From positions 1-29,720 of the forward strand of contig JBHLNT010000039.1 in NCBI GenBank assembly GCA_048941265.1: a stretch of 29,720 nt of DNA, written 5' to 3'. Positions 1-27,184 of the stretch are shown piece after piece. A model generated the notes under the pieces. That model had not been told where the DNA came from. It made no database searches and saw only the letters and a program-made list of their open reading frames with translations. Source of the stretch: Promethearchaeota archaeon (GTDB lineage Archaea; Asgardarchaeota; Lokiarchaeia; Sigyniarchaeales; SOKP01). A program made the translations under genes and the position numbers. How positions within the stretch are numbered: position 1 is the stretch's first letter; every line of letters starts with the position of its first letter.

Positions 1-171
1 AACAGGAATATATTTTTAGATGCTCATCATTATCATATCCATTTGGGTAATTTATTTGAAATATCAACAAAATTTATATTATCTGCCGGCAACACATATG
101 ATATTCAATTTACAACTCCGGCAGAAGGTTATATACATAATCAAAATAATTGTTTTCTTGCATCTCATTGA
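1..171 (+). CDS. 3' end of a hypothetical ORF entering from the left edge
   Basis: Frame 1 is open from base 1 to TGA at 169-171 (NRNIFLDAHHYHIHLGNLFEISTKFILSAGNTYDIQFTTPAEGYIHNQNNCFLASH*). 56 stop-free codons in very AT-rich DNA, converging on the che operon. Confidence 0.45.
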   Translation, partial: NRNIFLDAHHYHIHLGNLFEISTKFILSAGNTYDIQFTTPAEGYIHNQNNCFLASH

Positions 172-249
172 CCATTTTTAGTATTACTGATAATAAATTG
201 GATTTTTATGAGGGAATTTAAAAAAATGTTTTTTCCAAGATTTTATTTT

Positions 250-2160
250 TCAAACATCGTAAAATGTTGAGAGTGTATCTAATAATTCTTGCAAAGTCTC
301 AAGTTCTGGAATAAATAGAAAAGTACCTTGAATCTCAAATTCTTTAATAATTACGTTGGTTGTAATTACTAAAGATAATTCTTTCATTAATCCAATTTCT
401 TCATTTAAAATTTTAAACAATTTCATACCGGTATCTAAACTTATATCCGGTGGTTCGGTCATCAATCTCATATTTAATAGATTCCCTAAAGCTGTAGTAT
501 AATGACTAGCTAATATATGACCAAGTTCTTTCATCGCATCAATATACAGCTCTGGAAAATCTTGAACCGCATTCACTTTTCTCAAATCTATTTTTTCTTT
601 CCCATTATCACCAATTATAATAGATGTTAAACTAGTAATGTCTGGAACTTTAAATAATGTCAAAACTGTTGCTCTTGTCTTTCCTTGAACGCCACTCCAA
701 GAGACAAATAATTTCACATTTTTCTTACTCATTTTTTTAGCAAACTGGTCTATAGAAACGACCTCTACTGAAGGAATGTTGATATCTACACGTTTATTTA
801 TCATTTTTGCTAATGCATTCGCAGCATTGCCTGCTCCAATGTTTCCAACCTCTCTCAAAGCATCTTTCTGAATTTCTGTAAGCTCTAAATCGATGATTTT
901 ATCAAGCACTCCTCCAGGTTTAACATTTTCTATTTTTTCGTAAATATTCAATTTTTTGAAAAGATTTTCAATGGCTTTTAAGTCAGGTATATAGAAAAAG
1001 ATCCCTTTCATTTGTATATCCGTAACTTTTATTGCTGTCTTTATTATTACAACATATTCAGACTGCTCTTGGAGTTCTTTAGCTAAGAAATCACCCAAAT
1101 TGCCCGCATTACTCATCGTAAATTCAGGAACATCAAAAATCATTTTAGTATTTAATAAATCCGCTAAAGCTGAAGCATAGTGTCCTGCGAGAATATTACC
1201 AAATTCTGTGACTGTAGATATAGCAAAATCATCTAGATCTTTTTTAGATTTTACCTTATCAGGATTGATTTTTGACTTTTTACCTGCTAAATCTGCAATT
1301 AATTTCATTAATGGAGTCAACTCAAATACTTGTAGTATTGTAGATAAGGAAGGTTTTCTGATATGAGAAAAGATTCCACATACAATTTCTGAGGAATTTC
1401 CAAATTGAAGCGCTAGTTGTTCTAATGAAATTATGCCAACATCCGTAAGATCAACATCTATTCGTTTATTTATTAATCTTGAAAGAGCTGTGACAGCATT
1501 TCCACTTCCAATGTTCCCTACTTCTTGTAATGTATCTTTTTGCGTTTGAGTAAGTTTCATAGTACCTTGAACAATTGGTTGATAAAATTTATCACCAGTA
1601 GGAATTATAATATCTTCAGTCTTTTTTAAAGCAGGAAATCTTTCTGGAATATAACGTTCTGGTAATTGAGTAAAATCATGAGAGGCTCGCATTAACTGTT
1701 GATCTGGAGCTAAGGGTACAATTAGTGATTCTAAATCTAAAACAACATACGTTTCATGGTCTAAAACTCCTACTGATCTAATATATTTCATATCTATTTC
1801 CGTCTTTATAATAGCCGACTTATTTTGAAAAATTGAAACTGGAACTTCCTTCATACTGACAACTGAATCGACATAAATAGCTAGATTTATATCCTGTAGT
1901 TCTAGTAGTACTAGCCTAGAATCTTTAGTAAGCTTTACATAATCTCCATTTGAATGAAGTCTTTGTCCCAAAGCAATTATTGTATAAATTTTTCCTCTAA
2001 TATCTGCAACTCCCACAATAGATTTTTCTGCTAATGGTATTGGAATGATTAATTCTGGAACATAAATTTCTCTTACATCTTTTATTTCAAGATAATATGT
2101 TCTATCATCTACGTTGATCTCTACTAATTTTATGGTTTGTATATATTCATTTTCGATCAT
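250..2160 (-). CDS. CheW-CheC-CheC fusion (scaffold domain plus tandem CheY-P phosphatase domains)
   Basis: N-terminal ~150 aa is CheW-like (IPIPLAEKSIVGVADIRGKIYTII; IYVDSV; YIRSVG..VVLDLESL). Two CheC units follow, with E-x2-N motifs DTLQEVGNIGSGNA, STVTEFGNILAGHY, DALREVGNIGAGNA and DAMKELGHILASHY. Confidence 0.9.
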   Translation of the reverse strand: MIENEYIQTIKLVEINVDDRTYYLEIKDVREIYVPELIIPIPLAEKSIVGVADIRGKIYTIIALGQRLHSNGDYVKLTKDSRLVLLELQDINLAIYVDSVVSMKEVPVSIFQNKSAIIKTEIDMKYIRSVGVLDHETYVVLDLESLIVPLAPDQQLMRASHDFTQLPERYIPERFPALKKTEDIIIPTGDKFYQPIVQGTMKLTQTQKDTLQEVGNIGSGNAVTALSRLINKRIDVDLTDVGIISLEQLALQFGNSSEIVCGIFSHIRKPSLSTILQVFELTPLMKLIADLAGKKSKINPDKVKSKKDLDDFAISTVTEFGNILAGHYASALADLLNTKMIFDVPEFTMSNAGNLGDFLAKELQEQSEYVVIIKTAIKVTDIQMKGIFFYIPDLKAIENLFKKLNIYEKIENVKPGGVLDKIIDLELTEIQKDALREVGNIGAGNAANALAKMINKRVDINIPSVEVVSIDQFAKKMSKKNVKLFVSWSGVQGKTRATVLTLFKVPDITSLTSIIIGDNGKEKIDLRKVNAVQDFPELYIDAMKELGHILASHYTTALGNLLNMRLMTEPPDISLDTGMKLFKILNEEIGLMKELSLVITTNVIIKEFEIQGTFLFIPELETLQELLDTLSTFYDV

Positions 2161-2184
2161 AATAACTAATTACCTCTTTAATTT

Positions 2185-3021
2185 TCAAATATCATTTTTA
2201 ATCATAATTCCTTTCCATATGAGTTCTTTTTCTGATTCTTCTTTAGAATGTTCAGAAAAAAAATCTGGTTGCCTAAATATTGAAATTTGACCCCCTTCCG
2301 AGAATTCATATACATAATCTAGCAGATCTTCCATACTTGTAAAATTGAAACCTGCTAAACTTAAATCAGTATTATTAACTATAAGTAAATCTTCACTATC
2401 GAATGGGGCATTTTCATCATTAACCTCTAACCATAATTCAGGAATTAGTTCTTTTTTATCAATTGTAATTGTACCGCCTAATGGGATATCGCGGTAAGTC
2501 TTATTAGAAGCGAAAATTACCCTGTCTGGAATAATTTTACTGGACTTAGCAGTTTTTATAATCACTTCTATCGCTTTAGAATATTTCTGAGAATCTAATA
2601 CATCATAGCATAGTATAAAAATGTAACTGTTTCCATCTAATTTAACGATAAGGTCCACCGAATCTTCTATATCTGATGTGAGATTAATCTTTATTTCCTC
2701 TAAGATAATATCTCTTATGTATTTAAGGAATTGGTAAAACCTCCATTTTACAGCCAATTTATCGTTTATCTCGCGACTAATAAAAATCTGATAAAGATTT
2801 TGTAATTCTTTTTCAGATAGTTTAGATAAATCTGCAGTAGTATCGTAATCATTACCTATAGTAACAAGATCATTTGATTTACTAGATTTTGATTTCTTTG
2901 CAATATCTTCTAAAAGAATCTTAAGTTCTCCTATCGTAAATTGGGGTGCGATACTTCCCGCTAAATAAAACAATCTTTTTTTGGATTTATCCTGTAATAA
3001 ATCATAGTATTGTATTGTCAT
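2185..3021 (-). CDS. Hypothetical protein in the che operon, possibly with a degenerate PD-(D/E)xK-like fold
   Basis: 278-aa ORF, 24 and 35 bp from its co-oriented neighbours, no TM segments. The central VDLIVKLDGNSYIFILCYD resembles a nuclease core lacking the ExK motif. Function unknown. Confidence 0.7.
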   Translation of the reverse strand: MTIQYYDLLQDKSKKRLFYLAGSIAPQFTIGELKILLEDIAKKSKSSKSNDLVTIGNDYDTTADLSKLSEKELQNLYQIFISREINDKLAVKWRFYQFLKYIRDIILEEIKINLTSDIEDSVDLIVKLDGNSYIFILCYDVLDSQKYSKAIEVIIKTAKSSKIIPDRVIFASNKTYRDIPLGGTITIDKKELIPELWLEVNDENAPFDSEDLLIVNNTDLSLAGFNFTSMEDLLDYVYEFSEGGQISIFRQPDFFSEHSKEESEKELIWKGIMIKNDI

Positions 3022-3056
3022 TTTTTTTTCTCTTTTTTTTTTTAATTAATAATTTT

Positions 3057-5081
3057 TTATCCAAAGAAATATGATTCTAAGTCTGAATAATTAACCTCTT
3101 TTCCGCTTATATTTTTAAGATAATACATGATTTCTTTTTCTTGATATGCTGGTACATTTTCAATAGAAAAAGAGATTATATATTCGTTTTCTTTATTTAA
3201 TTTCGAAATTTTATTTTTGGTATTAGAAGAAACTAATTCAAATGAATTTGGTATTGTGTCTGTAATTAATACATCCTTAATTTCAACGTTAGAATTATTT
3301 CTTACATTGATGCTTATTGCGAATTCATCTGCATCACGCCCAGGAAATATTTCTTTACCAATTGCCAAATTCCGACGCTTATGTGTAACTTTTATGGTAG
3401 GTTTTTTCATCTCAGATAGAGTATGCTTTACTACATAATATTCATGTAATTCATTTTGTTCCTGATTTTCATATCTCGCATAATAACAGCTAACTTCCAG
3501 CGGAAATTCATATGCCTTATTATAGTCTGGAGTAATGGCCTTAATTGGATAAATTATTTCTAAATATCCATCTATCGCTATTATATCTTGTATACGATTT
3601 TCTTGTAAATTAATTTTTAAATCTAAAGCATGTTCTTTGGATGGATCATCATCTTGAGGAGTAATATTAAGAACAACATCATCCAATTTAATATCTCCTG
3701 ATGATTTTTTAAATTTAAATTGTGATAGAGCCACGCTTGGCTTAAAATCTTCTGGAATTGTCTCATTAATTATTACACCTTTAATAGGAACAATACCAGT
3801 GTTGCGAATAATAATTTTACTAAATAATTCTGATTCTTCAAATGATTTGATTTCTTTTTGAGAAATATCTTTTTCAAAGTAAAACCCAATCACTTCAATA
3901 ACATTATCTTCCATTTTTAAAGTAACATCTGTATTTTTCTCAACAGCATAATCCAATGAATAAACTATCTTTCGTGAAAATTTAGGTTCATTTTCATCAT
4001 GAAGTTCCCATTTATTAGTACCAAATGTATCTCCAGGTCGTAAAATAATATTATTATGTTCTGAAGATAGATCTAAATCTATATATTTCGTGGATTTTGA
4101 TTTATCTGTAATTAAAATATTTTTCAAATACATAGTGAAGTCGCTGTGATTCGCGAATATAAATGAACATTCCCATTGATTTGGTTCAGTTTCTTTTTCT
4201 TCAACATCTATGACATGCTTTGCATGAGAATATGCTGTGAATTCAGCAATATCCGTTCCTGAGACCGTATAGCCTTGTAATTCATAAGTCATATTAAGAA
4301 TCCCTGTCCTAATCCCTTCTTTTTTTTCAGGGAATATTTTAGCAACAATAACTAATTCATTTTTCTCTCCGGGCTTTAGTTCTCTTAAAATCCATGTTAA
4401 TTTATTGTTTTTAATTTTAATATCTATTTGTGAGTCAGCAGAGCAATCTAAATCATAAAAATTCTTAGGGATTTCTTTTTCAGAATGAATATCTTTGATT
4501 ATATAATTCGACACATTATGTAAAGTAATTATAAATTTAACTGTGCTTTCCTGGCCATATAACAAAATATATCGATCGTCTTGATTACTTGAATAAGTTT
4601 CAGTGAAATCCTTAACTATTTTTATCTCTTCATTTAATATTTCTATTTTTTCATTAATTTCAAGAGGATCAGGTAAATTATCGAGATTATTAATATTATA
4701 TTTAATATTTTTATTAGTTTGTGGTTCAAAGATCCCAAGATTCAACTCGTTTTGAACGTCTAAATTGGTATATTCCGAACCTAAGATGTGAATTCGGGTA
4801 TCCCACATTCGATCTTTATATGAGTTATTAATGATAGATACATTACCATAACCATCAGCAGATTTTCTTTTCATATTGCGATCATAATGAAATTCTAAAG
4901 TCTCATTATTCAATATGGTAATTTCAGATATTTTATCTGCTGTTTTTGAAATTTGATCTTTCTCTTTAGTTTCAAATTTCGCTACTTGTTTTATTTCTTC
5001 CATAAATTTTAGTGGTACTCCCAAAAAATTAGTACCAACTTTGGTCCTTAATTCAGTTTGGCTAATACATTTAAATCCCAT
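3057..5081 (-). CDS. Cytoplasmic multi-beta-sandwich protein: adaptin mu/delta-COP homology (MHD)-like N-terminal half plus DUF11/Ig-like domains
   Basis: No signal peptide or TM. Repeated DUF11-like strands (IIIRNTGIVPIKGVIINETIPEDF; INVRNNSNVEIKDVLITDTIPNSFELV). MHD-like segments EITILNNETLEFHYDRN..GNVSI and LTWILRELKPGEKNEL..LNMTYELQGYTVSG. Alternative start at ATG 5003. Confidence 0.6.
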   Translation of the reverse strand: MGFKCISQTELRTKVGTNFLGVPLKFMEEIKQVAKFETKEKDQISKTADKISEITILNNETLEFHYDRNMKRKSADGYGNVSIINNSYKDRMWDTRIHILGSEYTNLDVQNELNLGIFEPQTNKNIKYNINNLDNLPDPLEINEKIEILNEEIKIVKDFTETYSSNQDDRYILLYGQESTVKFIITLHNVSNYIIKDIHSEKEIPKNFYDLDCSADSQIDIKIKNNKLTWILRELKPGEKNELVIVAKIFPEKKEGIRTGILNMTYELQGYTVSGTDIAEFTAYSHAKHVIDVEEKETEPNQWECSFIFANHSDFTMYLKNILITDKSKSTKYIDLDLSSEHNNIILRPGDTFGTNKWELHDENEPKFSRKIVYSLDYAVEKNTDVTLKMEDNVIEVIGFYFEKDISQKEIKSFEESELFSKIIIRNTGIVPIKGVIINETIPEDFKPSVALSQFKFKKSSGDIKLDDVVLNITPQDDDPSKEHALDLKINLQENRIQDIIAIDGYLEIIYPIKAITPDYNKAYEFPLEVSCYYARYENQEQNELHEYYVVKHTLSEMKKPTIKVTHKRRNLAIGKEIFPGRDADEFAISINVRNNSNVEIKDVLITDTIPNSFELVSSNTKNKISKLNKENEYIISFSIENVPAYQEKEIMYYLKNISGKEVNYSDLESYFFG

Positions 5082-5140
5082 GTTTTTTCTGCTCCATTTG
5101 GTTTTTTAGTTATTTTTTATTACATCTTTTTTTGTTAATT

Positions 5141-7249
5141 TTAATAAATATCACTTAATTGTGAGTATTGTAGTTCGTTTAATTTAGAGTTAATGATGTT
5201 AAAAACATCAAGGATTAAACAAATAGATCCATCATTCAAGATCGTTGAACCTGAAATATGATCTGTAATAGAGTATTCTGATTGAAAAGGCTTTACCACC
5301 GCATCAATTTGTTCGAGAATTTCATCAGCAACTAATATTGCTGATGAGTTTTCGTCTTTTTGGCATAAAATGGCTAGTTTTGTATGTGAATTTTTCTTTG
5401 CTTTACCATTACTATTTAATTTTAAAAGCTTATCCAATTGAATTATTGGTAGCATACTATAAAGTGTATCATCCTTAGAGTTGATTTTATAAAATTCTAC
5501 CTCCTCAACATATTCCACTAATTCAGGGCTATAAAAATAGATTTGTTTAATATTTTCTGTAGGAATTGCGAAGATATCACCAGCAATCTTCAATAACTGG
5601 GCTTTGATAATTGCCCTACTAAATGGGACAATAACTGTGAATTTAGTGCCAATGCCTTTTTCCGTAAAAATCTGAAAAGAACCACCTAATTTTTTAACCT
5701 TCTCATCAACTATAGCTAAGCCCATTCCTCGTCCTGAAATCAAATCTGCATCTGAAAGAGTTGAAAAACCCGGCATCAAAAGAAATTTATTTAAAACTTC
5801 ATTTGAAAGAAGTTGCACCTCATTAGGAGTGTAATAACCTTTTTTAACAATATTTTCTCTTATCTTATCATAATTAATCCCTTTTCCATCATCAGAGATT
5901 TCAATATAGATTAAGCCTGCTCTACGATATGTCTTTAGTTTCAGAATACCCGTCTCATTCTTATTTTTGGAAATTCTCTCTTTTGGCGATTCAATTCCAT
6001 GATAAATTGCATTTCTAAGAAGATGAATGAGTGGTGAATTGAGTTCCTCTAAAATTTTTCTGTCCATTTCCACATTTATGCCTTCTAAGATGAATTTTAT
6101 TTTTTTACCAGTTTCTATTGCAACATCACGTACCAATCTTTTATATTTCCTAAAAGTTGATTCTACTCTGACAAGTTTTAAATCAAAAATAATTTCTTGG
6201 ATATCAAGTAGAGATTTATCAATATTATCAAAAAGTATACTTATCTCTTGTTCTTGTCTCTCTTTTAGAATTTGACTAATTTGATTTTTAATTATTATTA
6301 ATTCTCCAAAATAATCCATTAATTTCTCCAGTGTGTCAATATCCACTTTAATTCTTGATATAGTTGTTCTTTCATTTTGAAAATCGTCTACTATCTTAGA
6401 AACGGGTTCAATTTCCCCGTCAATAAATTCCTCCTCATAAGTATCTACTTTTTGACTTTCTATGTTACTGGCTAACGTTTTCTCAGTCTGTTGTTTAATG
6501 CTAAAATTAGTGAGAAGTGGTTCGAATTTCTCACGTGTTAATTCAGTTATAACCTTGTTATCAATTTCAAGAATCTCTTCTAAAATTTGAGAAATTTGTG
6601 CTGAAGTTTTGGGAGTAATAAAGTAGATTTCGAAATCTCTGTCAAAATTTCCTATTTCTAATAATCTAGGCTCGGGATTGCTATAACAGATTTGGCCAAT
6701 TTCATTTAGAGCCCTAAAAATAATAAATAATCTAACTTTTTTAAATACACAGGTAGCTTGTAATCTAATATATATCTTGAAATAGTTATTATTTTTTGCA
6801 CTTAATGTTTGTTTTATTTTATCTTGAGGAATTGGTTTAATAAAGGTAATTTCATATTCATTATCAAAATCTTCGAATGTATCTTTTATTTCTTCTAAAA
6901 ACTTTACGTCAATATCTGTGTTATCGCCCTTTTTTACTTTGGTCACTACTGTTCGAAGAACATCAAGACTTTCAAAAAATATTGAAGTAAAGCTACTAAT
7001 CTTTTCTGGTGAAACCTTGTTATTTTTAGCTTTATTCAAAAAATCTTCTAAAAAATGGCAAAATTTAGAAACATTGTTAAAACCTGCCATAGCAGTCAAT
7101 CCTTTTAAAGTATGGAATGCAAAAAAAAGTTCTTGGATTGGTTTTGTATTGCGAGGATTTTCTTCTAACTTAAGAACTTCATCTTCTACTTTTTGGATAA
7201 GATCTTCGGATTCATTTATAAACAGCTGAATATCTTCTTTAGTTGCCAT
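5141..7249 (-). CDS. cheA: Chemotaxis histidine kinase CheA
   Basis: Hpt domain with FHTLKG, P2 domain, dimerisation segment (IKVDIDTLEKLMDYFGEL), HATPase boxes HLLRNAIYHG / DDGKG / PGFST / SGRGMG, and C-terminal CheW-like P5. Confidence 0.97.
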   Translation of the reverse strand: MATKEDIQLFINESEDLIQKVEDEVLKLEENPRNTKPIQELFFAFHTLKGLTAMAGFNNVSKFCHFLEDFLNKAKNNKVSPEKISSFTSIFFESLDVLRTVVTKVKKGDNTDIDVKFLEEIKDTFEDFDNEYEITFIKPIPQDKIKQTLSAKNNNYFKIYIRLQATCVFKKVRLFIIFRALNEIGQICYSNPEPRLLEIGNFDRDFEIYFITPKTSAQISQILEEILEIDNKVITELTREKFEPLLTNFSIKQQTEKTLASNIESQKVDTYEEEFIDGEIEPVSKIVDDFQNERTTISRIKVDIDTLEKLMDYFGELIIIKNQISQILKERQEQEISILFDNIDKSLLDIQEIIFDLKLVRVESTFRKYKRLVRDVAIETGKKIKFILEGINVEMDRKILEELNSPLIHLLRNAIYHGIESPKERISKNKNETGILKLKTYRRAGLIYIEISDDGKGINYDKIRENIVKKGYYTPNEVQLLSNEVLNKFLLMPGFSTLSDADLISGRGMGLAIVDEKVKKLGGSFQIFTEKGIGTKFTVIVPFSRAIIKAQLLKIAGDIFAIPTENIKQIYFYSPELVEYVEEVEFYKINSKDDTLYSMLPIIQLDKLLKLNSNGKAKKNSHTKLAILCQKDENSSAILVADEILEQIDAVVKPFQSEYSITDHISGSTILNDGSICLILDVFNIINSKLNELQYSQLSDIY

Positions 7250-7282
7250 TTAATCCCCTTTATATCTTTTTTGTTTATAGAA

Positions 7283-7675
7283 TTATTTCTTATCCTTTAA
7301 TTTTAGAATTCGTTCCATAACTTCTATAATTTGTTCAGTTTTGAAAGGCTTTTGAATAAAATCCTTAGCTCCTTTTTTTGCCGCCTCAAGCACTAACGCT
7401 TCCTGGCCTAATGCGGATACTACTACAATTATAGCTTTAGGATCAACTTTTAAAAGTTCTTCAATTGCTTCAATGCCGCCCTTTTCTGGCATTACTAAAT
7501 CCATGGTAACCAAATCTGGCTTTAATTTCTTGTACATAGCGATTGCTTCCTTTCCATTTTTAGCTTCACCAACAACTTCTCCATAATTTGTTTTAGAGAT
7601 GACGTTCTTTAGTATATTACGTGTAAATTGGGCGTCGTCGACAATTAAAATTTTACTTTTATTATTTTTTGACAT
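7283..7675 (-). CDS. cheY: Single-domain response regulator CheY
   Basis: ILIVDD, phospho-acceptor TMDLVMP, VVSALGQ, FIQKPF; adjacent to cheA. Confidence 0.95.
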   Translation of the reverse strand: MSKNNKSKILIVDDAQFTRNILKNVISKTNYGEVVGEAKNGKEAIAMYKKLKPDLVTMDLVMPEKGGIEAIEELLKVDPKAIIVVVSALGQEALVLEAAKKGAKDFIQKPFKTEQIIEVMERILKLKDKK

Positions 7676-7697
7676 TTTTTTAACTCCTTTTTTTATT

Positions 7698-8222
7698 TTA
7701 TTTTGTTATAGTTTGTTGTTTATCCATAATGGTTTGTTCTATTTCGGTTAATATTTTACTCAAATCGAGCAAAATTCTAGGTCTATCTTTAAACTTAATA
7801 ATTCCTTTTATATATTCAATCCCAACACTAGTTTGGAATATTGGACTTAAACCTTCAACTAAATTAGCATCGATATTTACAATATCTAAAATACGATCAA
7901 CTAAAAATCCTGTATTGACATTATTTACACTAACAATAATGATATATTTTTGCTCTGAACTATATTTCTCTTCATTTTTATTAGAATTATGTATTTTATA
8001 TTCGTTCAGATTTAATTTTTTGCTCAAATTTACGATATGTATTATTTCCCCTCTGTAATTATAAATTCCGTCGATAAAATCATAACTTTGAGGCAATTTT
8101 CTAATTTGGCCCGCTATTATTATTTCTTTGGTATCGTATATATTAATCGCAAATTGTTCTCTTTCTGTTTCAAATAAGATAACCGAAAGCTTATCTCCTT
8201 GAGTATAATATCCTTCTTGCAA
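7698..8222 (-). CDS. cheW: Chemotaxis coupling protein CheW
   Basis: IRKLPQSYDFIDGIYNYRGEIIHIVNL, GFLVDRI, YIKGIIK..ILLDL. TTG start preceded by a purine-rich AAAGGGGA SD-like stretch. Confidence 0.93.
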   Translation of the reverse strand: MQEGYYTQGDKLSVILFETEREQFAINIYDTKEIIIAGQIRKLPQSYDFIDGIYNYRGEIIHIVNLSKKLNLNEYKIHNSNKNEEKYSSEQKYIIIVSVNNVNTGFLVDRILDIVNIDANLVEGLSPIFQTSVGIEYIKGIIKFKDRPRILLDLSKILTEIEQTIMDKQQTITK

Positions 8223-8275
8223 AATTTTATCCCCTTTTTTTTTACTTATAATACACTTTTTTTACTTACATTTTC

Positions 8276-9103
8276 TTAAATATTAAAGTATCTATTAATA
8301 TTCTTTTCAAATTTATAAAATGCTGTGATATCTCCATTAAAATTCTCAAGATGGTCTTTATATTCTTCCAAAAATTCATCTGCTATTAGGTACATATATC
8401 TTTTAAGAAGTGGAGTTACTTTTTCAACTAAGAATGCAAATATAATATTTTTTTTAGTTATGGTATAAAATAATTGATTTCCGAAATTGATCTCTTTAAG
8501 TTTTCCACCAGTCTCTTTACCTATAACAAATTGTGAGAAAGAAAAAAGTGCCGAAATAAAACCTCCTATTTGAACCTCTCCATCAATAATATCTGTCCTT
8601 TTTCCCATAATTTTTGTAAAAAGTGGACATCCCGCGGTATCTATAACAAAAATACCAATTATTCCCTCTCCTAATGGTATTTCGATTGAGTTTTTAATAA
8701 TATCCTTAATTTCATTGATAGAATGATTATCACAGCAAAACTTGATAATACTTTTAGAATGTAAATATAATTCAGAATATTGTAAAGGACTTTCTTTTTC
8801 ATAAAGATATATTAAAATTAATTTCTCTAATTCTTTTTTATTCTTGAAAAAATTAAGAAATACTGAAAAATCATCTAGTGGAATAATGGAATTTCCACTA
8901 TCTTTTTTAATAATCTCCATCTTGAAAAGATGTAATATATTTTGTATCATAGGCATTCCAATACCAATTTGGTAAAGCACTTCCGAGCTATAATCTACTG
9001 ACTCAATGTTTTCGAAAGTAATTTTGATTAAGCCAATCCCCAAAACTTCTAACATTCTAGGATTATTAACACTTCTATCCATGCTTATCATCGAGATTAC
9101 CAA
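8276..9103 (-). CDS. Longin-domain protein (C-terminal longin, possible second degenerate longin at the N-terminus)
   Basis: C-terminal ~125 aa: IIGIFVIDTAGCPLFTK, helix IGGFISALFSFSQ, strands LKEINFGNQLFYTITKKNIIFAFLV, helix IADEFLEEY..FNGDITAFYKFE. This matches longin topology as seen in Asgard ESPs. Start codon uncertain (TTG 9103 or a downstream ATG). Confidence 0.75.
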   Translation of the reverse strand: MVISMISMDRSVNNPRMLEVLGIGLIKITFENIESVDYSSEVLYQIGIGMPMIQNILHLFKMEIIKKDSGNSIIPLDDFSVFLNFFKNKKELEKLILIYLYEKESPLQYSELYLHSKSIIKFCCDNHSINEIKDIIKNSIEIPLGEGIIGIFVIDTAGCPLFTKIMGKRTDIIDGEVQIGGFISALFSFSQFVIGKETGGKLKEINFGNQLFYTITKKNIIFAFLVEKVTPLLKRYMYLIADEFLEEYKDHLENFNGDITAFYKFEKNINRYFNI

Positions 9104-9317: not shown

Positions 9318-9836
9318 CTAGTGTAATTCTTTCTCAAATACTTGAAAGTCAGTTGATGTAAATAAACAAAAAATCACTTCTTCCATCTGAGTATCTGTTG
9401 ATAAATAATCTTTCGCTGTTGCGATCATTATTTTTGCACATCTTTCAATAGGATAGCCAAATATTCCTGTAGAAATTGCTGGAAATGCAATTGACTTTAA
9501 GTTATGTTCATCCATTAATTTTAGACTGTTTAATGTAGCATTTTTCAATTTTTCATCTTCATTTCCCTCTCCCATTCTTGGCCCAACAGCATGAATTACA
9601 TAGTTCGCTTTTAAATTTCCCCCGGTAGTAATAACAGCCCCTCCTACGAATGTAGGAGATTTTTTGTCACATTCCTCTTGAATTTTAGGACCACCTTTCC
9701 GTCGAATTGCACCTGCTACTCCACCCCCCATAATTAATTGCGCATTAGCAGCATTAACAATTACATCAGTATCTAATTCTGTTATATCTCCTTGGACTAA
9801 CTTAATTTTTGAATTTTTTATTATTAATTCGTTCAT
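9318..9836 (-). CDS. Macro domain protein (MacroD/YmdB-type ADP-ribose-binding, O-acetyl-ADP-ribose deacetylase family)
   Basis: GDIT, IVNAAN, GGGVAGAI, VIHAVGP and AFPAISTGIFGYP signature motifs. Confidence 0.95.
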   Translation of the reverse strand: MNELIIKNSKIKLVQGDITELDTDVIVNAANAQLIMGGGVAGAIRRKGGPKIQEECDKKSPTFVGGAVITTGGNLKANYVIHAVGPRMGEGNEDEKLKNATLNSLKLMDEHNLKSIAFPAISTGIFGYPIERCAKIMIATAKDYLSTDTQMEEVIFCLFTSTDFQVFEKELH

Positions 9837-15811: not shown

Positions 15812-16717
15812 ATGATGTTAGAATTTAAAACAGAACAAAAAGTAATTCAGATTGGGAATATTAAAATTGGAGGCCAACCTGGTGAAAATCCAATAGTAAT
15901 GGTTGGTACTGTTTTTTATGCGAAACATCCTGCATTATTAGATGAAAAAACTGGAAAATTCGATAAAAATATTGTTGAAACTGAAGTCAATGAATTTATA
16001 GAAGTCGTTAAAGATACAGATATGCCGGCAATAATCGACGTAGTTGGAAGTTATCCTGATGCATTAATAAAAGAATGTGAATTTATCGCAGATTTAACGG
16101 ATTGTCCCTTTTTAGTCGATGGACTAAACGACACTAGTAGAATTCCTGCTATGGAAGGTCTAAAAGAGATCGGATTACTAGAGAGAGCGATTTTAAATAG
16201 TATTGATGAGAATACATCAACCGAAAGTTTGAACAAACTTAAGGAAATTGGAGTTAAACATGCTGTCCTTTTAACATTTGGAAATAGATATATTTTTCCA
16301 CATCAAAAACTACATTTATTGCAAGAAAAATTGCTGGTTAGCGCTAAAAAAGCCAGCATTAAAAACCTAATTGTCGACACTGCTGTTTTAGACTTACCGT
16401 CTGTAGCGATAAATGTAGAAACAACTCACTTAATAAAAGAGGAGTTGGGCTTACCGACTGGATTTGCACCTGCAAATGCAATATATGGTTGGGATTATGT
16501 TAAAAAGTATGGAGAAAGTTCCAGATGTGGGGCCATAACCTCTATTATGACCTATTGTGCCGATGCGGGAAGTGATTTTATATTATTTGGTCCAGTTAAA
16601 TTTGCTAAATGTGTCGTTCCCTCTATTGCTATGATTTCGGGTATCAATGCATATTATAGAAAAAGGATTTTAAGGAAACATATATCTGAACAAACACCTT
16701 TTAAGAAGATTTTCTAA
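15812..16717 (+). CDS. mtrH: MtrH-family pterin-binding methyltransferase (methyl-H4MPT/H4F:corrinoid methyltransferase)
   Basis: FKTEQKV.QIG..KIGGQPGENP..VGTVFY..H, PFLVDG, AILNSI, IVDTAV, GLPTGFAPAN, GSDFILFGP. Confidence 0.9.
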   Translation: MMLEFKTEQKVIQIGNIKIGGQPGENPIVMVGTVFYAKHPALLDEKTGKFDKNIVETEVNEFIEVVKDTDMPAIIDVVGSYPDALIKECEFIADLTDCPFLVDGLNDTSRIPAMEGLKEIGLLERAILNSIDENTSTESLNKLKEIGVKHAVLLTFGNRYIFPHQKLHLLQEKLLVSAKKASIKNLIVDTAVLDLPSVAINVETTHLIKEELGLPTGFAPANAIYGWDYVKKYGESSRCGAITSIMTYCADAGSDFILFGPVKFAKCVVPSIAMISGINAYYRKRILRKHISEQTPFKKIF

Positions 16718-16722
16718 ATCTC

Positions 16723-18246
16723 TTAAGAAATGTATCTTAAAAGTAAATCGCTAGTTCGATACATGAAATCTGGCATTAATTCATTTATCCGCTTTTTTTT
16801 AATTTCTTCATCCATTAAAAAGAGAACAAAGAAATTATAATTACCAATTCTGATTTTTTTAAATAGAATAATAGAATCTGCAATTTTAAAAATAGCTTCA
16901 TCTTGCTTTAAAGCACGAAATTCTGAAAAAATTTTAAATAATAAAGTAAACTGAGGTGCTGTAATTTCAAATATGTTTCTTATTTTTTCTTCATCCGAAC
17001 CTTCTCCAGCAAGTTGGATTTCTGATATTCTAAATAGTTCACCCGATAAAAAATCTGCTAGTACCAATCCTTCATTATTTAATAACAAAGATAACGAAAT
17101 ACCAGCACGATTTGAAAATTTTTTGAGAATTAGATTAATTAATTTTCTATTGGGACTTAATTTTGAAATACCCGAAGAAAAAGCTTGCAAAATGCTAAAT
17201 ATTGAAAAGATACTGGTTATAAATATTTCAGGCTTCTTATTAGGGATAAGCTCAATTAGTTTTGATTTTATAAATTGAATATTTTCTTTGATTTCTTGGT
17301 TATTTATAATATCCTTGTCTCCTTTAGATAAAATAAATATGATAGGGGTATCCATCTTAAATTCTTTTAATGCAATTTTAATTTGTTGAAAATATTCTAT
17401 ACTTTCATCAAAACGGGCTTTATTCTTGATATCAATAAAGTAAAAAAGTAGATCTGTTTCATATAAATAGATTTGAGACTTAGTTAAATATTTTTGCCTT
17501 GAAGCTATTTGTCCTCCTAAATCCCAAAGAAAAATAGATGCTCCAAGTGCTTGTATTGATGAAACATTAGCTCCTACAGTAGGTTTTAAGCCAATTAATT
17601 TAGAATATTTTCTATCAACAGATAATAAAAACGATGTTTTACCCGAATCATCTAACCCTGCAAAGACAACTTTTATTCTTGTCGCATGCGTAATTGGAGC
17701 ATAAGGTTTTTTTTCAATTTCAATCAATTTTAACAGTAATTCCTTAAAGACTGGTTCAATTAATTCAGAAGATTTATATCCATTTGAAATTTCTTTATCA
17801 AATTTTAAAAGAAAGTTAAATACAAGAGACTTAAGCTGATTTAAATTATTATATAAAAAACTCCGCCTATTTCTGTCTACTAAAATCGAAAATGCTGCTG
17901 CGATGGGTTCTTGAGGCTCTTTAGACTTCTTAAATTTAATAAAATGAAAGATTGTCAAAGATGTAAGATTAAAATCAGGAAAAGGTAATATTGCAAAGTA
18001 AGGTAATTTTTCTGAGTCCTTATCTACATCAATGAATTCTTGATCTCCCGCCATCATACTAAGATTTTTTATAGAAATCTGAGTATAATCTCTGTAACTT
18101 AATCTAATTATATTTTGTAGTCTAAATTGCTCTGCCTCCTCTTCAGAAACCTCTTTAGGGAACATGTAAATAGGTTGGGGGCCAAATTTATCAAAAGCTG
18201 AAAAGAGAAGCCCTTTTATGACTGATTTTTCGATGAGTTCTTCCAT
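16723..18246 (-). CDS. uDENN/longin-like domain + Arf/Rag-like small GTPase + C-terminal roadblock-like domain fusion
   Basis: G1 GLDDSGKTS, G2 KPT, G3 WDLGGQ, G4 SKGD, G5 TSIF. N-terminal LLFSAFDKFGPQPIYMFP motif; C-terminal SLLLNNEGLVLA roadblock-like start. Confidence 0.85.
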   Translation of the reverse strand: MEELIEKSVIKGLLFSAFDKFGPQPIYMFPKEVSEEEAEQFRLQNIIRLSYRDYTQISIKNLSMMAGDQEFIDVDKDSEKLPYFAILPFPDFNLTSLTIFHFIKFKKSKEPQEPIAAAFSILVDRNRRSFLYNNLNQLKSLVFNFLLKFDKEISNGYKSSELIEPVFKELLLKLIEIEKKPYAPITHATRIKVVFAGLDDSGKTSFLLSVDRKYSKLIGLKPTVGANVSSIQALGASIFLWDLGGQIASRQKYLTKSQIYLYETDLLFYFIDIKNKARFDESIEYFQQIKIALKEFKMDTPIIFILSKGDKDIINNQEIKENIQFIKSKLIELIPNKKPEIFITSIFSIFSILQAFSSGISKLSPNRKLINLILKKFSNRAGISLSLLLNNEGLVLADFLSGELFRISEIQLAGEGSDEEKIRNIFEITAPQFTLLFKIFSEFRALKQDEAIFKIADSIILFKKIRIGNYNFFVLFLMDEEIKKKRINELMPDFMYRTSDLLLRYIS

Positions 18247-25160: not shown

Positions 25161-26108
25161 TTGGAGTATCTAAAAGAAGAGAAAGTAATCTCGAAAAAGA
25201 TACTGTTCACTGGACTCGATGATGCTGGGAAAACTTCGATAATCCTAGCCCTTCAGAGAGAATTTTCTAAGATTGCAAATATTCAGCCTACAAGAGGTGC
25301 ACAAAGGCGAATCTTTCAGTTTTTAGGTAAGGAAATTAGTGAGTGGGATCTAGGAGGACAAACAACTTACAGAATCTCATATCTTAAAAATCCAGATAAA
25401 TTTTTCGCAGGAACCGAAATTGCAATATATGTAATTGATGTTATAAATAAGGAACGGTTATCTGAATCATTAAGTTATTTAAAAGATGTAATACTTCAAT
25501 TTAAAAAATTGCATATTACTCCTCCTATTAATATTTTTTTCCACAAATTTGACCCGACTTTACCTAAATCCACTAGAGAAGAATTGGGAACTCTTACCCT
25601 CAATTTAAAGAAGAAAATTAATGATTTAGTCAGATATAAAAAAATTTACTTCTTTGAGACCTCAATTTATAGTTTACCTTCTATTATGAATGCCATTTCT
25701 GAAATTTTATTAGAACTTTATCCTAGATCCAAACTTATTAAAAAAACAATTGAAGAATTTGCAATAAAATTAAATTGTGAAGGAATTGTAATCATTGATA
25801 AAAACTCTCTTATCATAGGTTCCTATTTTAAAGATCATGAAACTGGTGAGATTCTTACGAGGTCAATGCCCTACTTCTTGACATTAAATGACAGTTTTCA
25901 GCTGGAAGGAGTTGACCAAACAAATCAAGATCAGATGGTTGTTCATAGATTTGGGAAATTTTTTTTATTTAAAGAAATCCTATTAAAAGAAAGTGGCACA
26001 CCCTATTATCTTCTCATAGTTAAAGGTGATAATCCTTGGGATCTTTACTTCAGCAATAAAGACTTTAGAGCTTTTATCCACATGTTAAGGGATTTAATAT
26101 ATAAATAG
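25161..26108 (+). CDS. Arf/Rag-like small GTPase with C-terminal roadblock-like domain (paralogue 1)
   Basis: GLDDAGKTS, PTRG, WDLGGQ, HKFD, TSIY; C-terminal GIVIIDKNSLIIGSY domain. TTG start. Confidence 0.9.
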   Translation: MEYLKEEKVISKKILFTGLDDAGKTSIILALQREFSKIANIQPTRGAQRRIFQFLGKEISEWDLGGQTTYRISYLKNPDKFFAGTEIAIYVIDVINKERLSESLSYLKDVILQFKKLHITPPINIFFHKFDPTLPKSTREELGTLTLNLKKKINDLVRYKKIYFFETSIYSLPSIMNAISEILLELYPRSKLIKKTIEEFAIKLNCEGIVIIDKNSLIIGSYFKDHETGEILTRSMPYFLTLNDSFQLEGVDQTNQDQMVVHRFGKFFLFKEILLKESGTPYYLLIVKGDNPWDLYFSNKDFRAFIHMLRDLIYK

Positions 26109-26245: not shown

Positions 26246-27184
26246 TTGGAATACTTAAGAGAAGAGAAACCAGAGACTAGTAAAATTTTGTTTTCAGGGT
26301 TAGATGATGCAGGGAAGACTAGTATAATCTTAGCGCTTCAGAGAGAATTTTCTAAAATTGCAAATATTGAACCAACAAAGGGCGCGCAAAGACGCATGTT
26401 CGAGTTTTTAGGAAAGAATATAAGTGAATGGGATCTTGGCGGTCAACAAACATATAGAATTGCATATCTTAAAAATCCAACGAAATATTTTACTGAAACA
26501 GAGGTTTTAATTTATGTAATTGACATACGCAACAAACAGAGAATTCAAGAATCTTTAAGTTATTTGAAAGATGTCATAAATGAATTTAGAAATCTCGAAA
26601 TAGAGCCACCAATTTTTATTTTTTTCCATAAGTATGATCCTGCATTAACTAGAAATAGTTATGAAGAAATAGATAAGCTAATTTTATATTTGAGGGATAA
26701 AATACTTAGTATTCCGAATTACAAAAAATTTTATTTCCGTAACACTACTATTTATGATTTATCAACCCTTATTAGTGCTATGTCAGAAGCCTTACTATCA
26801 ATATATCCTAAAACAGATTTAATACAACAAACAATTTACGAATTTGGAATTAAATCAAAGGCAGACGGAATAGCAGTTATTGATTCCAATTCATTAATTA
26901 TAGGGTGGTTTTACAGATATGAAAGTATGAAAGACATTTTACTCGCATCGACCCCTTACTTTTTAAGTTTAAATACAAGCTTTGATTTTACAGAGGGAAT
27001 GGAAGATAACGATGAAAACAAAATGATAATACAAAGACACGGAAAATATTTTCTTTTTAGAAAATTTTCCTTAAACGAGGAAGTTGAGCCATTTTATTTG
27101 TTAATTTCAAAAGATGATCCGGAAATTAATAAGGAAGGTTTCAATGCTTTGATAAATATTTTAACAGAGATTTTATATCAATAG
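26246..27184 (+). CDS. Arf/Rag-like small GTPase with C-terminal roadblock-like domain (paralogue 2)
   Basis: GLDDAGKTS, PTKG, WDLGGQ, HKYD, TTIY; C-terminal GIAVIDSNSLIIGWF domain. Collinear with paralogue 1. TTG start. Confidence 0.9.
   Translation: MEYLREEKPETSKILFSGLDDAGKTSIILALQREFSKIANIEPTKGAQRRMFEFLGKNISEWDLGGQQTYRIAYLKNPTKYFTETEVLIYVIDIRNKQRIQESLSYLKDVINEFRNLEIEPPIFIFFHKYDPALTRNSYEEIDKLILYLRDKILSIPNYKKFYFRNTTIYDLSTLISAMSEALLSIYPKTDLIQQTIYEFGIKSKADGIAVIDSNSLIIGWFYRYESMKDILLASTPYFLSLNTSFDFTEGMEDNDENKMIIQRHGKYFLFRKFSLNEEVEPFYLLISKDDPEINKEGFNALINILTEILYQ

Follow-up and report, generated by a model that had tools for sequence, protein, structure and literature searches.

The window considered here is a 29,720-nucleotide stretch of DNA (contig JBHLNT010000039.1) from a Promethearchaeota archaeon, placed among the Loki-type Asgard archaea through its TBP gene and the source names of its homologues ('Promethearchaeota', 'Lokiarchaeota'); the G+C content across the window is 26-34%. 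Near its left end lies a chemosensory (che) operon in which Che genes are interleaved with three non-Che genes, termed P1, P2 and P3. Seven open reading frames (ORFs), all on the minus strand, occupy positions 250-9103 with gaps of 24, 35, 59, 33, 22 and 53 bp, and the first-pass annotation's description of seven co-oriented genes spaced by 22-59 bp agrees with the ORF coordinates and the Pfam matches. The order of transcription, as assigned with Pfam and NCBIfam, is P1, CheW, CheY, CheA, P2, P3 and a CheW-CheC-CheC fusion. A gap of 214 bp, previously given as about 210 bp, separates the P1 ORF from the next ORF upstream of the operon, a macro-domain gene on the same strand (9318-9836).

CheA is a 702 amino acid (aa) histidine kinase (5141-7249) with five Pfam domains: Hpt, P2, dimerisation, HATPase and CheW. 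CheY is a 130 aa response regulator (7283-7675; Pfam Response_reg, E 4.1e-28) whose residues D13, D14, D59, S87 and K109 are invariant in an alignment of 11 sequences; the best NCBIfam matches of both CheA and CheY are haloarchaeal models (for CheY, CheY_Halo, E 8.3e-32). CheW is a 174 aa coupling protein (7698-8222; Pfam CheW, E 1.2e-26). The last of the seven, a 636 aa CheW-CheC-CheC fusion (250-2160), matches Pfam CheC in three stretches (E 8.6e-39) and CheW (E 2.6e-18), as well as NCBIfam CheC_Thtogales (E 2.9e-65); on its domain matches it is a coupling domain joined to predicted phosphatase domains for phosphorylated CheY (CheY-P). Profile searches inside the window found no match for a methyl-accepting chemotaxis protein (MCP), CheR, CheB, CheD, CheF or archaellin.

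P1 is a 275 aa protein if read from a TTG codon (8276-9103); the form in a protein collection is 268 aa long and covers 97% of this ORF, and initiation at the third ATG, near base 9082, would fit the shorter form. P1 falls into no Pfam family, neither longin nor Robl_LC7 matches it even at E ≤ 10, and a sequence profile search of the PDB reaches dynein roadblock at best, with E 0.11-0.16. The AlphaFold model, built from a 56-sequence alignment with a predicted local distance difference test (pLDDT) score of 85, features two tandem β-β-α-β-β-β-α domains; Foldseek returns 45 PDB matches at E ≤ 1e-3, among those listed Roadblock/LC7, TRAPP, AP sigma, Mon1-Ccz1, Fuzzy-Inturned, LAMTOR and MglB, and VIA-align returns 66 chains at Z ≥ 8, the best 50 of the 66 being longin or roadblock proteins. 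Residues 144-275 superpose on Roadblock3 of MK-D1 (Z 12.6, 2.0 Å over 102 residues) and also match TRAPP Bet5 (Z 12.6), the VAMP7 longin domain and MglB (Z 11.7-11.8). For the N-terminal domain, residues 13-143, the matches are the longin domain of Lst4 (Z 10.6), GATOR1 (Z 10.5) and a Lokiarchaeal Roadblock-Longin protein (Z 10.2); the alignments to Roadblock3 and to Lst4 span residues 144-250 and 19-143. By its predicted fold, P1 is a protein of two tandem longin/roadblock domains; the earlier longin call accordingly stands at the level of fold, in the model, Foldseek and VIA-align, and fails at the level of Pfam.

P2 is a 674 aa protein (3057-5081) that appears cytoplasmic, as inspection by eye found no signal peptide or membrane segment. 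The only domains detected in its sequence by Pfam at E ≤ 10 are DUF11 and DUF7507, with DUF11 (E 1.1e-9) confined to residues 585-648, and in the Atlas the protein falls among archaeal DUF11 clusters. The first-pass annotation had read P2 as a protein with a mu-homology domain and an Ig-like part; a mu-homology domain is found neither by Pfam at E ≤ 10 nor by the PDB profile search (single match 1qyi, E 0.019) and the call is left without sequence support, the Ig-like part being the DUF11 segment. Paralogues of 25% identity occur in 38 of 41 genomes (the window genome and its 40 nearest relatives, described below), and P2 belongs, as far as its sequence indicates, to a multi-copy DUF11 family of archaea in which it is the che-linked orthologue. 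Three of the nine P2 orthologues carry a K/E-rich, coiled-coil-like insert of about 300-400 residues between the first 160 residues and the β-sandwich part (L029:7797-10709 in genome G015, L030:8602-11796 in G017 and L031:4183-7206 in G023); a distant P2 in genome G026 has a comparable insert further along.

The N-terminus of P2 is of separate interest, with M1, G2, F3 and L11 invariant in the nine orthologues. CheY-P is bound in Escherichia coli by FliM, the N-terminal docking motif of which resembles LSQxEIDALL, and the N-terminus of P2 shares M1, G2, S7, Q8 and E10 in register with it. A relaxed FliM-like pattern is fitted by only four of the nine orthologues and also, by chance, by 15 of the 4334 ORFs of the window genome; the three P2 paralogues of that genome lack a FliM-like N-terminus. 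Four ORFs of at least 100 aa in the window genome start with MG and a FliM-like [ILVM][STN]Q.[ED][ILV] within the first residues, one of them being P2. The segment is considered a putative CheY-P docking peptide and a weak lead.

P3 is a 278 aa orphan (2185-3021) for which neither Pfam nor NCBIfam holds a family, and a PDB sequence profile search gave nothing useful. Its model (pLDDT 88) contains at residues ~85-201 a predicted restriction-endonuclease-like, PD-(D/E)XK core, matching 1y88 (Z 8.1, 2.5 Å over 98 residues), NucS (2vld, Z 7.7), Card1 (Z 7.7) and Can2; most of the best 50 structural matches have the PD-(D/E)XK fold and many are restriction enzymes. Among 54 sequences, at least 90% retain D123 and all have K174 and R177 (placement by eye); no conserved lysine was seen by eye in the strand expected to carry the catalytic D...(D/E)xK motif, which is not clearly preserved. 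The family is small, with 158 clusters and 64 representatives in a profile search of 1.84 billion proteins, and an Atlas feature search gave scores of 0.85 or less. Twelve of these 64 proteins were scanned with Pfam, nine of which have no family at E ≤ 0.01, and the three with unrelated domains are weak or partial profile matches; the source names seen are 'hypothetical protein', nearly all from Asgard metagenome-assembled genomes (MAGs) and most labelled Promethearchaeota.

The operon does not end with the CheW-CheC-CheC gene. In the first-pass annotation a convergent ORF closes the run at its left side. The frame in question is an open-ended plus-strand one of 56 codons at window 1-171; it is unsupported as a gene because bases 1-128, which lie outside the locus, have no run support. 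Logan contigs from four public DNA runs were mapped onto window 1-2500: depth is 0 in all four runs over bases 1-84, the run contigs start at bases 129, 133, 136 and 144, and homology to G001, a genome of the same genus, begins at about base 128, with none for the bases before. Bases 1-128 are probably an assembly artefact. A bridging contig of 1300 nt (run X2, a different sample) covers window 129-367, and its overhang is the reverse complement of bases 1-30 of another contig of the same assembly, C282. Joining the two pieces gives an uninterrupted frame of 189 aa, identical to the G001 orthologue at 152 of 189 positions; its first 11-12 residues are encoded on the minus strand of the window, starting at base 163, up to the point of divergence, and tblastn places residues 13-189 at C282:2-532. 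The left end of the window is thus a break in the assembly that falls within an eighth operon gene (minus strand, window 129-163 plus C282 bases 1-535), since the runs lack bases 1-84 and the bridging contig joins base 129 to C282. A short inverted repeat, seen by eye where the unsupported end meets supported sequence (window 85-130; TCTGCCGG at 91-98 and CCGGCAGA at 119-126), may have caused the misassembly. An insertion sequence as the cause of the break was considered and rejected: blastn of window 1-300 found no second copy in the assembly, and bases 1-84 are unsupported.

In G001, an assembly of 10 contigs, the CheW-CheC-CheC gene is followed by the 189 aa gene, CheR, CheD, CheC, a second CheY, CheB and a Roadblock-domain gene, and the orthologues stand in the same order at the very start of C282. 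The operon in the window genome thus extends at least eight genes past CheW-CheC-CheC, through the 189 aa gene, CheR, CheD, CheC, CheY2, CheB, a Roadblock-Ras GTPase and a second receiver-CheB, and the window contains its upstream half. The Roadblock/LC7-Ras fusion (C282 4858-5823, plus strand, locus L039; Ras E 7.2e-35, Robl_LC7 E 2.9e-5) is located between the two cheB genes, the second of which lies at 5897-7330 on the same strand; G001 shares this arrangement. The absence of CheR, CheB and CheD noted earlier is a property of the window and not of the operon, as these genes follow directly on C282.

The eighth gene encodes a predicted single gelsolin-domain protein with a putative actin link. 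A profile of eight orthologues compared with the PDB gave 17 matches, 13 of them to the gelsolin family: Asgard 7c2f (E 1.7e-7) and 7c2h (E 9.7e-6), CapG (E 1.2e-4) and Loki 2DGel 7whg (E 1.9e-4), with further matches to Heimdall 2DGel, villin, gelsolin and adseverin. A conserved, coiled-coil-like C-terminal tail follows the gelsolin domain and a linker. The emphasis of the first-pass annotation on trafficking found no support; the clearest eukaryote-like link of the operon is this dedicated gelsolin-domain gene, which the contig break had hidden.

Conservation was assessed in the sample of 41 genomes introduced above, the 40 nearest and the window genome (G000), with orthologue cut-offs of E below 1e-170 for CheA, below 1e-100 for P2 and below 1e-35 for the gelsolin gene. 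A close CheA orthologue is present in nine (G000, G001, G007, G008, G014, G015, G017, G023 and G031); the same nine have the P2 orthologue, directly after cheA in all eight relatives, and a full-length gelsolin-type gene. P3 is a single-copy gene in these nine and in G026 (10/41). The order P1, CheW, CheY, CheA, P2, P3, CheW-CheC-CheC and 189 aa gene is found on one contig in G001, G014, G015, G023 and G031; G008 has it divided between two contigs, G017 lacks only an adjacent P1 and G007 shows it in fragments. Measured against the proteins of the window, identity runs from 77-92% in G001 down to 33-73% in G031, a member of another family. Weak or partial CheA matches occur in G021, G026, G028 and G039; the locus in G026 reads CheY, CheB, CheA, CheD, P2-like gene and P3-like gene, and that in G028, at a contig end, CheW, CheY, CheA, CheD and P2-like gene.

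Co-occurrence extends to the phylum. Of 301 genomes sampled evenly from the phylum, 42 have CheA, 14 of them in the family of the window genome (f1) and 28 elsewhere, and P3 is found in 14, exactly the CheA-bearing f1 genomes. Homologues of P1 and P3 are five genes apart by locus tag in the NCBI assemblies EU532, ACFFBP, ACFFAS, EU539 and ACFFB0 and are not so placed in ACXAAH. The C-terminal domain of P1 has many paralogues, and full-length relatives of P1 occur also in the cheA-less genomes G010, G019 and G022; because such relatives and paralogues are found in cheA-less genomes or in nearly all genomes, it is by sequence comparison the orthologue rather than the family that tracks the operon for P1 and P2. 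The comparison of cheA neighbourhoods across Asgard genomes, a check proposed in the first-pass annotation, thus finds the non-Che genes conserved beside cheA across genera; P1, P2, P3 and the gelsolin gene are integral, co-inherited parts of the operon.

The rest of the pathway is encoded in the same genome. The single H-kinase_dim match of the whole genome is the CheA gene of the window; MCPsignal has six matches, on four other contigs, and there are two matches for CheR, three for CheB and two for CheD. In G023, G031 and G008 the gene directly upstream of P1 encodes an MCP of about 330 aa, and in G017 cheW has an MCP gene directly upstream, so that all four of the upstream ORFs examined are MCP genes. 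The description of the operon as receptor-less does not survive these counts and applies only locally. The pathway is a complete, adapting and MCP-dependent one: a CheW, CheY and CheA core with a built-in CheC phosphatase, CheR, CheD, CheC and CheB on C282, and receptors elsewhere in the genome.

The motor is a different matter. The Pfam model CheF-arch has no match in the window genome; archaellin (Arch_flagellin) has no match in any of the 41 genomes, the window genome included, and neither has the platform gene T2SSF, in a search that had ArlI/ArlH-type ATPases outside its scope. The T2SSF platform protein is required by all type IV filaments (T4F), archaella included. T2SSF is found in 169 of the 301 phylum genomes; it is found in 0 of 69 in f1, the window genome included, in 0 of 7 in a second family, f2, whereas of the 27 CheA-bearing genomes that belong to neither family 25 have it (a count taken from two tables). 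These two families include genomes of 98-100% completeness and single-contig genomes. The lineage is one without a detectable archaellum, pilus platform protein or CheF; 'motor-less', as the operon had been called, holds for CheF, archaellin and T2SSF in this genome and its 40 relatives, and a normal full set elsewhere in the genome was not found, MCP, CheR and CheB having matches and CheF, archaellin and T2SSF none.

Chemosensory genes are known from other Asgard archaea. The consulted parts of PMC9834061 describe putative chemoreceptor arrays in 'Candidatus Lokiarchaeum ossiferum' ('Ca. L. ossiferum'), with cheA/B/C/D/R/W/Y and 15 MCPs; they count 27 Asgard MAGs with che genes among 97 and name no Che output. 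A supplementary table of that paper, based on AsCOG, lists a 'Longin' gene (UYP44120) ahead of CheW (UYP44121), CheA (UYP44122) and an uncharacterised gene; in the same table the two other CheA clusters of this organism (around UYP44696 and UYP47601) have neither longin nor DUF11-type genes beside them. No description of longin, DUF11, orphan and gelsolin genes in an Asgard che operon was found in full-text literature searches, subscription journals and bioRxiv supplements lying outside their coverage; the conserved gene set of this Che system, putatively one of accessory and output function, appears to be undescribed.

In the archaeal chemotaxis of Halobacterium, Haloferax and Methanococcus, CheY-P acts via CheF on ArlCDE of the archaellum. 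The present system shares with it the five-domain CheA, CheW, CheY, CheC-type phosphatases, CheD, CheR, CheB and MCPs; it differs in that CheF, archaellin and the platform protein are undetected, in its four conserved non-Che genes and in the fusion of CheW to two CheC domains. It is proposed, with moderate confidence, that the non-Che proteins built into the operon are an output or adaptor module directed towards actin and small GTPases. P1, P2, P3 and the gelsolin protein would form this module in place of CheF and the archaellum; in the window genus the Roadblock-Ras GTPase, whose gene stands between those of the two CheB proteins, may join it. CheY-P would dock on one of the four non-Che proteins, and the signal would go to the Lokiactin cytoskeleton via the gelsolin domain, through capping or severing; it may also reach a small-GTPase switch via longin/roadblock platforms, resembling Myxococcus Frz on MglA/MglB. 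The result would be a bias of protrusion growth, cell shape or surface movement. A non-archaellum output, possibly in GTPase signalling or cell shape, is therefore a fair reading, since the non-Che genes are conserved beside cheA, no CheF, archaellin or T2SSF was found and a Roadblock-Ras gene stands in the operon; this much of the rewiring suggested in the first-pass annotation is retained. Only tentatively can the proposal be sharpened to a two-component Che pathway of bacterial type that directly steers a cytoskeleton of eukaryote-like actin: CheY-P would dock on an operon adaptor, possibly through the FliM-like peptide of P2, upon which P2, P3, P1 and the gelsolin protein would act locally, capping or severing Lokiactin or switching a Ras/Roadblock pair, so that protrusions grow or retract along chemical gradients.

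Several observations weigh against an output module. Any physical link between Che and non-Che proteins is hypothetical, and gene order and co-inheritance fit output, input and scaffold roles alike. Pfam Gelsolin matches two of the eight orthologues of the eighth gene, with a best E of 0.011, below threshold; the predicted nuclease-like fold of P3 suggests no obvious cytoskeletal role, and that fold itself finds no Foldseek match at E ≤ 1e-3 and has middling Z values (best 8.1). The Roadblock-Ras gene adjoins the operon only in G000 and G001 among the fetched loci. The window genome (5.0 Mb in 361 contigs) is 91% complete. The CheF Pfam model matches three control archaea and none of the 301 phylum genomes, T4F-bearing ones included; its silence is weak, non-discriminating evidence because the model finds none even in Asgard genomes with T4F genes, and it may fail to see Asgard forms that have diverged. 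For other Promethearchaeati the consulted passages of PMC13705601 report archaellum parts at scattered sites as well as some CheF homologues.

The position of P1 between an MCP gene and cheW in G023, G031 and G008, with the MCP gene adjoining cheW in G017, would fit a role at the receptor array equally well. On this account the non-Che proteins would stand on the input side, as scaffolds that place, cluster or partition the array, much as ParC/ParP-type systems position arrays in bacteria, and the output of CheY-P would lie elsewhere; the fusion of a CheW domain to CheC domains likewise shows accessory proteins tethered to the array, and the co-inheritance data are accommodated just as well. 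However, a full adapting Che pathway in a motor-less lineage would then be left without a candidate output, and the gelsolin domain is known for its action on the ends of actin filaments, not for anchoring; an input-side role is regarded as possible but unlikely. Che-like systems that serve alternative cellular functions are familiar from bacteria, and the operon may instead control something non-cytoskeletal, for example surface adhesion, a second messenger or the expression of genes, with the four non-Che genes as co-transcribed passengers; the nuclease-like fold of P3 and the further receiver genes of the same operon (the second CheY and the receiver-CheB proteins) could be taken in this sense. 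Strict co-occurrence and a fixed order over 35-92% identity and at least two families (f1 and f4) are hard to square with passengers, and even in the distant G026 and G028 the P2-like gene still follows cheA, with cheD between, and in G026 the P3-like gene follows P2; this account is rather improbable. Ordinary archaeal chemotaxis, with an archaellum or pilus and a CheF-like adaptor missed as divergent or unassembled, is the least probable of all and very unlikely: it could draw on the incomplete assembly, on a CheF model that may be blind in the phylum and on PMC13705601, whose consulted passages hold that ~100 Promethearchaeati genomes likely encode archaella, often scattered, with an ordered archaellum locus in 'Ca. 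L. ossiferum' citing PMC9834061 (where 'archaell' is absent from the main text and has four mentions in the supplementary tables, the two examined both being FlaI-type ATPases), but the T2SSF model that finds 169 of 301 genomes finds none in f1 and f2, near-complete genomes included, and Arch_flagellin has no match in 41.

Some further genes were noted. In some genomes there are separate ORFs of about 550-580 aa whose similarity to CheA is confined to its N-terminal Hpt-P2 part (residues 1-270, ~40-45% identity), matched twice in part; they may be stand-alone phosphotransfer proteins with repeated CheA-type P2 domains; those of Hpt-P2 type lie at G015:C39:22951-24141, G017:C44:5675-6550, G023:C290:9862-11061 and G021:C145:3053-4447. 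Beyond the operon on C282 a 257 aa ORF (7372-8145, minus strand, locus L039) is kept in G001 with 91% identity; profilin was considered for it and dropped, as the weak match (E 0.0042) is below threshold and was not recovered at E ≤ 0.001. The window contig also carries three genes for Gtr1/RagA-Arf-type small GTPases, at 16723-18246 (minus strand), 25161-26108 (plus) and 26246-27184 (plus), the first with an N-terminal extension of about 190 aa; such GTPases are typical Asgard content. An MtrH-family methyltransferase gene lies at 15812-16717 (plus strand; E 9.2e-61).

The proposed output module has a functional likeness in Myxococcus xanthus, in which the Frz system acts on a polarity switch of MglA, a Ras-like GTPase, and MglB, its Roadblock GTPase-activating protein. 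Both are Che-type pathways without a rotary motor as target, and both involve proteins of roadblock/longin fold and, in the window genus, a Ras-family GTPase; the modelled C-terminal domain of P1 resembles MglB (Z values as given above). The likeness is one of analogy; there is no sequence-level orthology, and the present system has a gelsolin regulator and belongs to an archaeon. The eighth gene, for its part, resembles the Asgard gelsolins (ProGel and 2DGel; 7c2f, 7c2h, 7whg and 7whf) in a profile match over ~65 residues with E 1.7e-7 to 1.5e-3; unlike these, it has one gelsolin domain, a linker and a coiled-coil-like tail, and its orthologous group occurs only in che-bearing genomes. P1 has two domains of the fold found in the longin/roadblock platforms of eukaryotes and Asgard archaea (TRAPP Bet5/Trs23, AP sigma, Mon1-Ccz1, Lst4, LAMTOR, Asgard Roadblock and Roadblock-Longin), but differs from them in having no Pfam longin or Roadblock match and in sitting inside a che operon.

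Cultured Lokiarchaeia have chemoreceptor arrays as well as an actin skeleton with protrusions, and the operon supplies named, conserved candidates for the missing link between Che and actin: the gelsolin-domain protein, the double-longin protein, two orphans and, in the window genus, the Roadblock-Ras GTPase. If the link proves false, the operon still defines a class of Che systems of unknown output; if it is true, prokaryotic phosphorelay sensing would have been coupled to the regulation of actin and small GTPases before the origin of eukaryotes.

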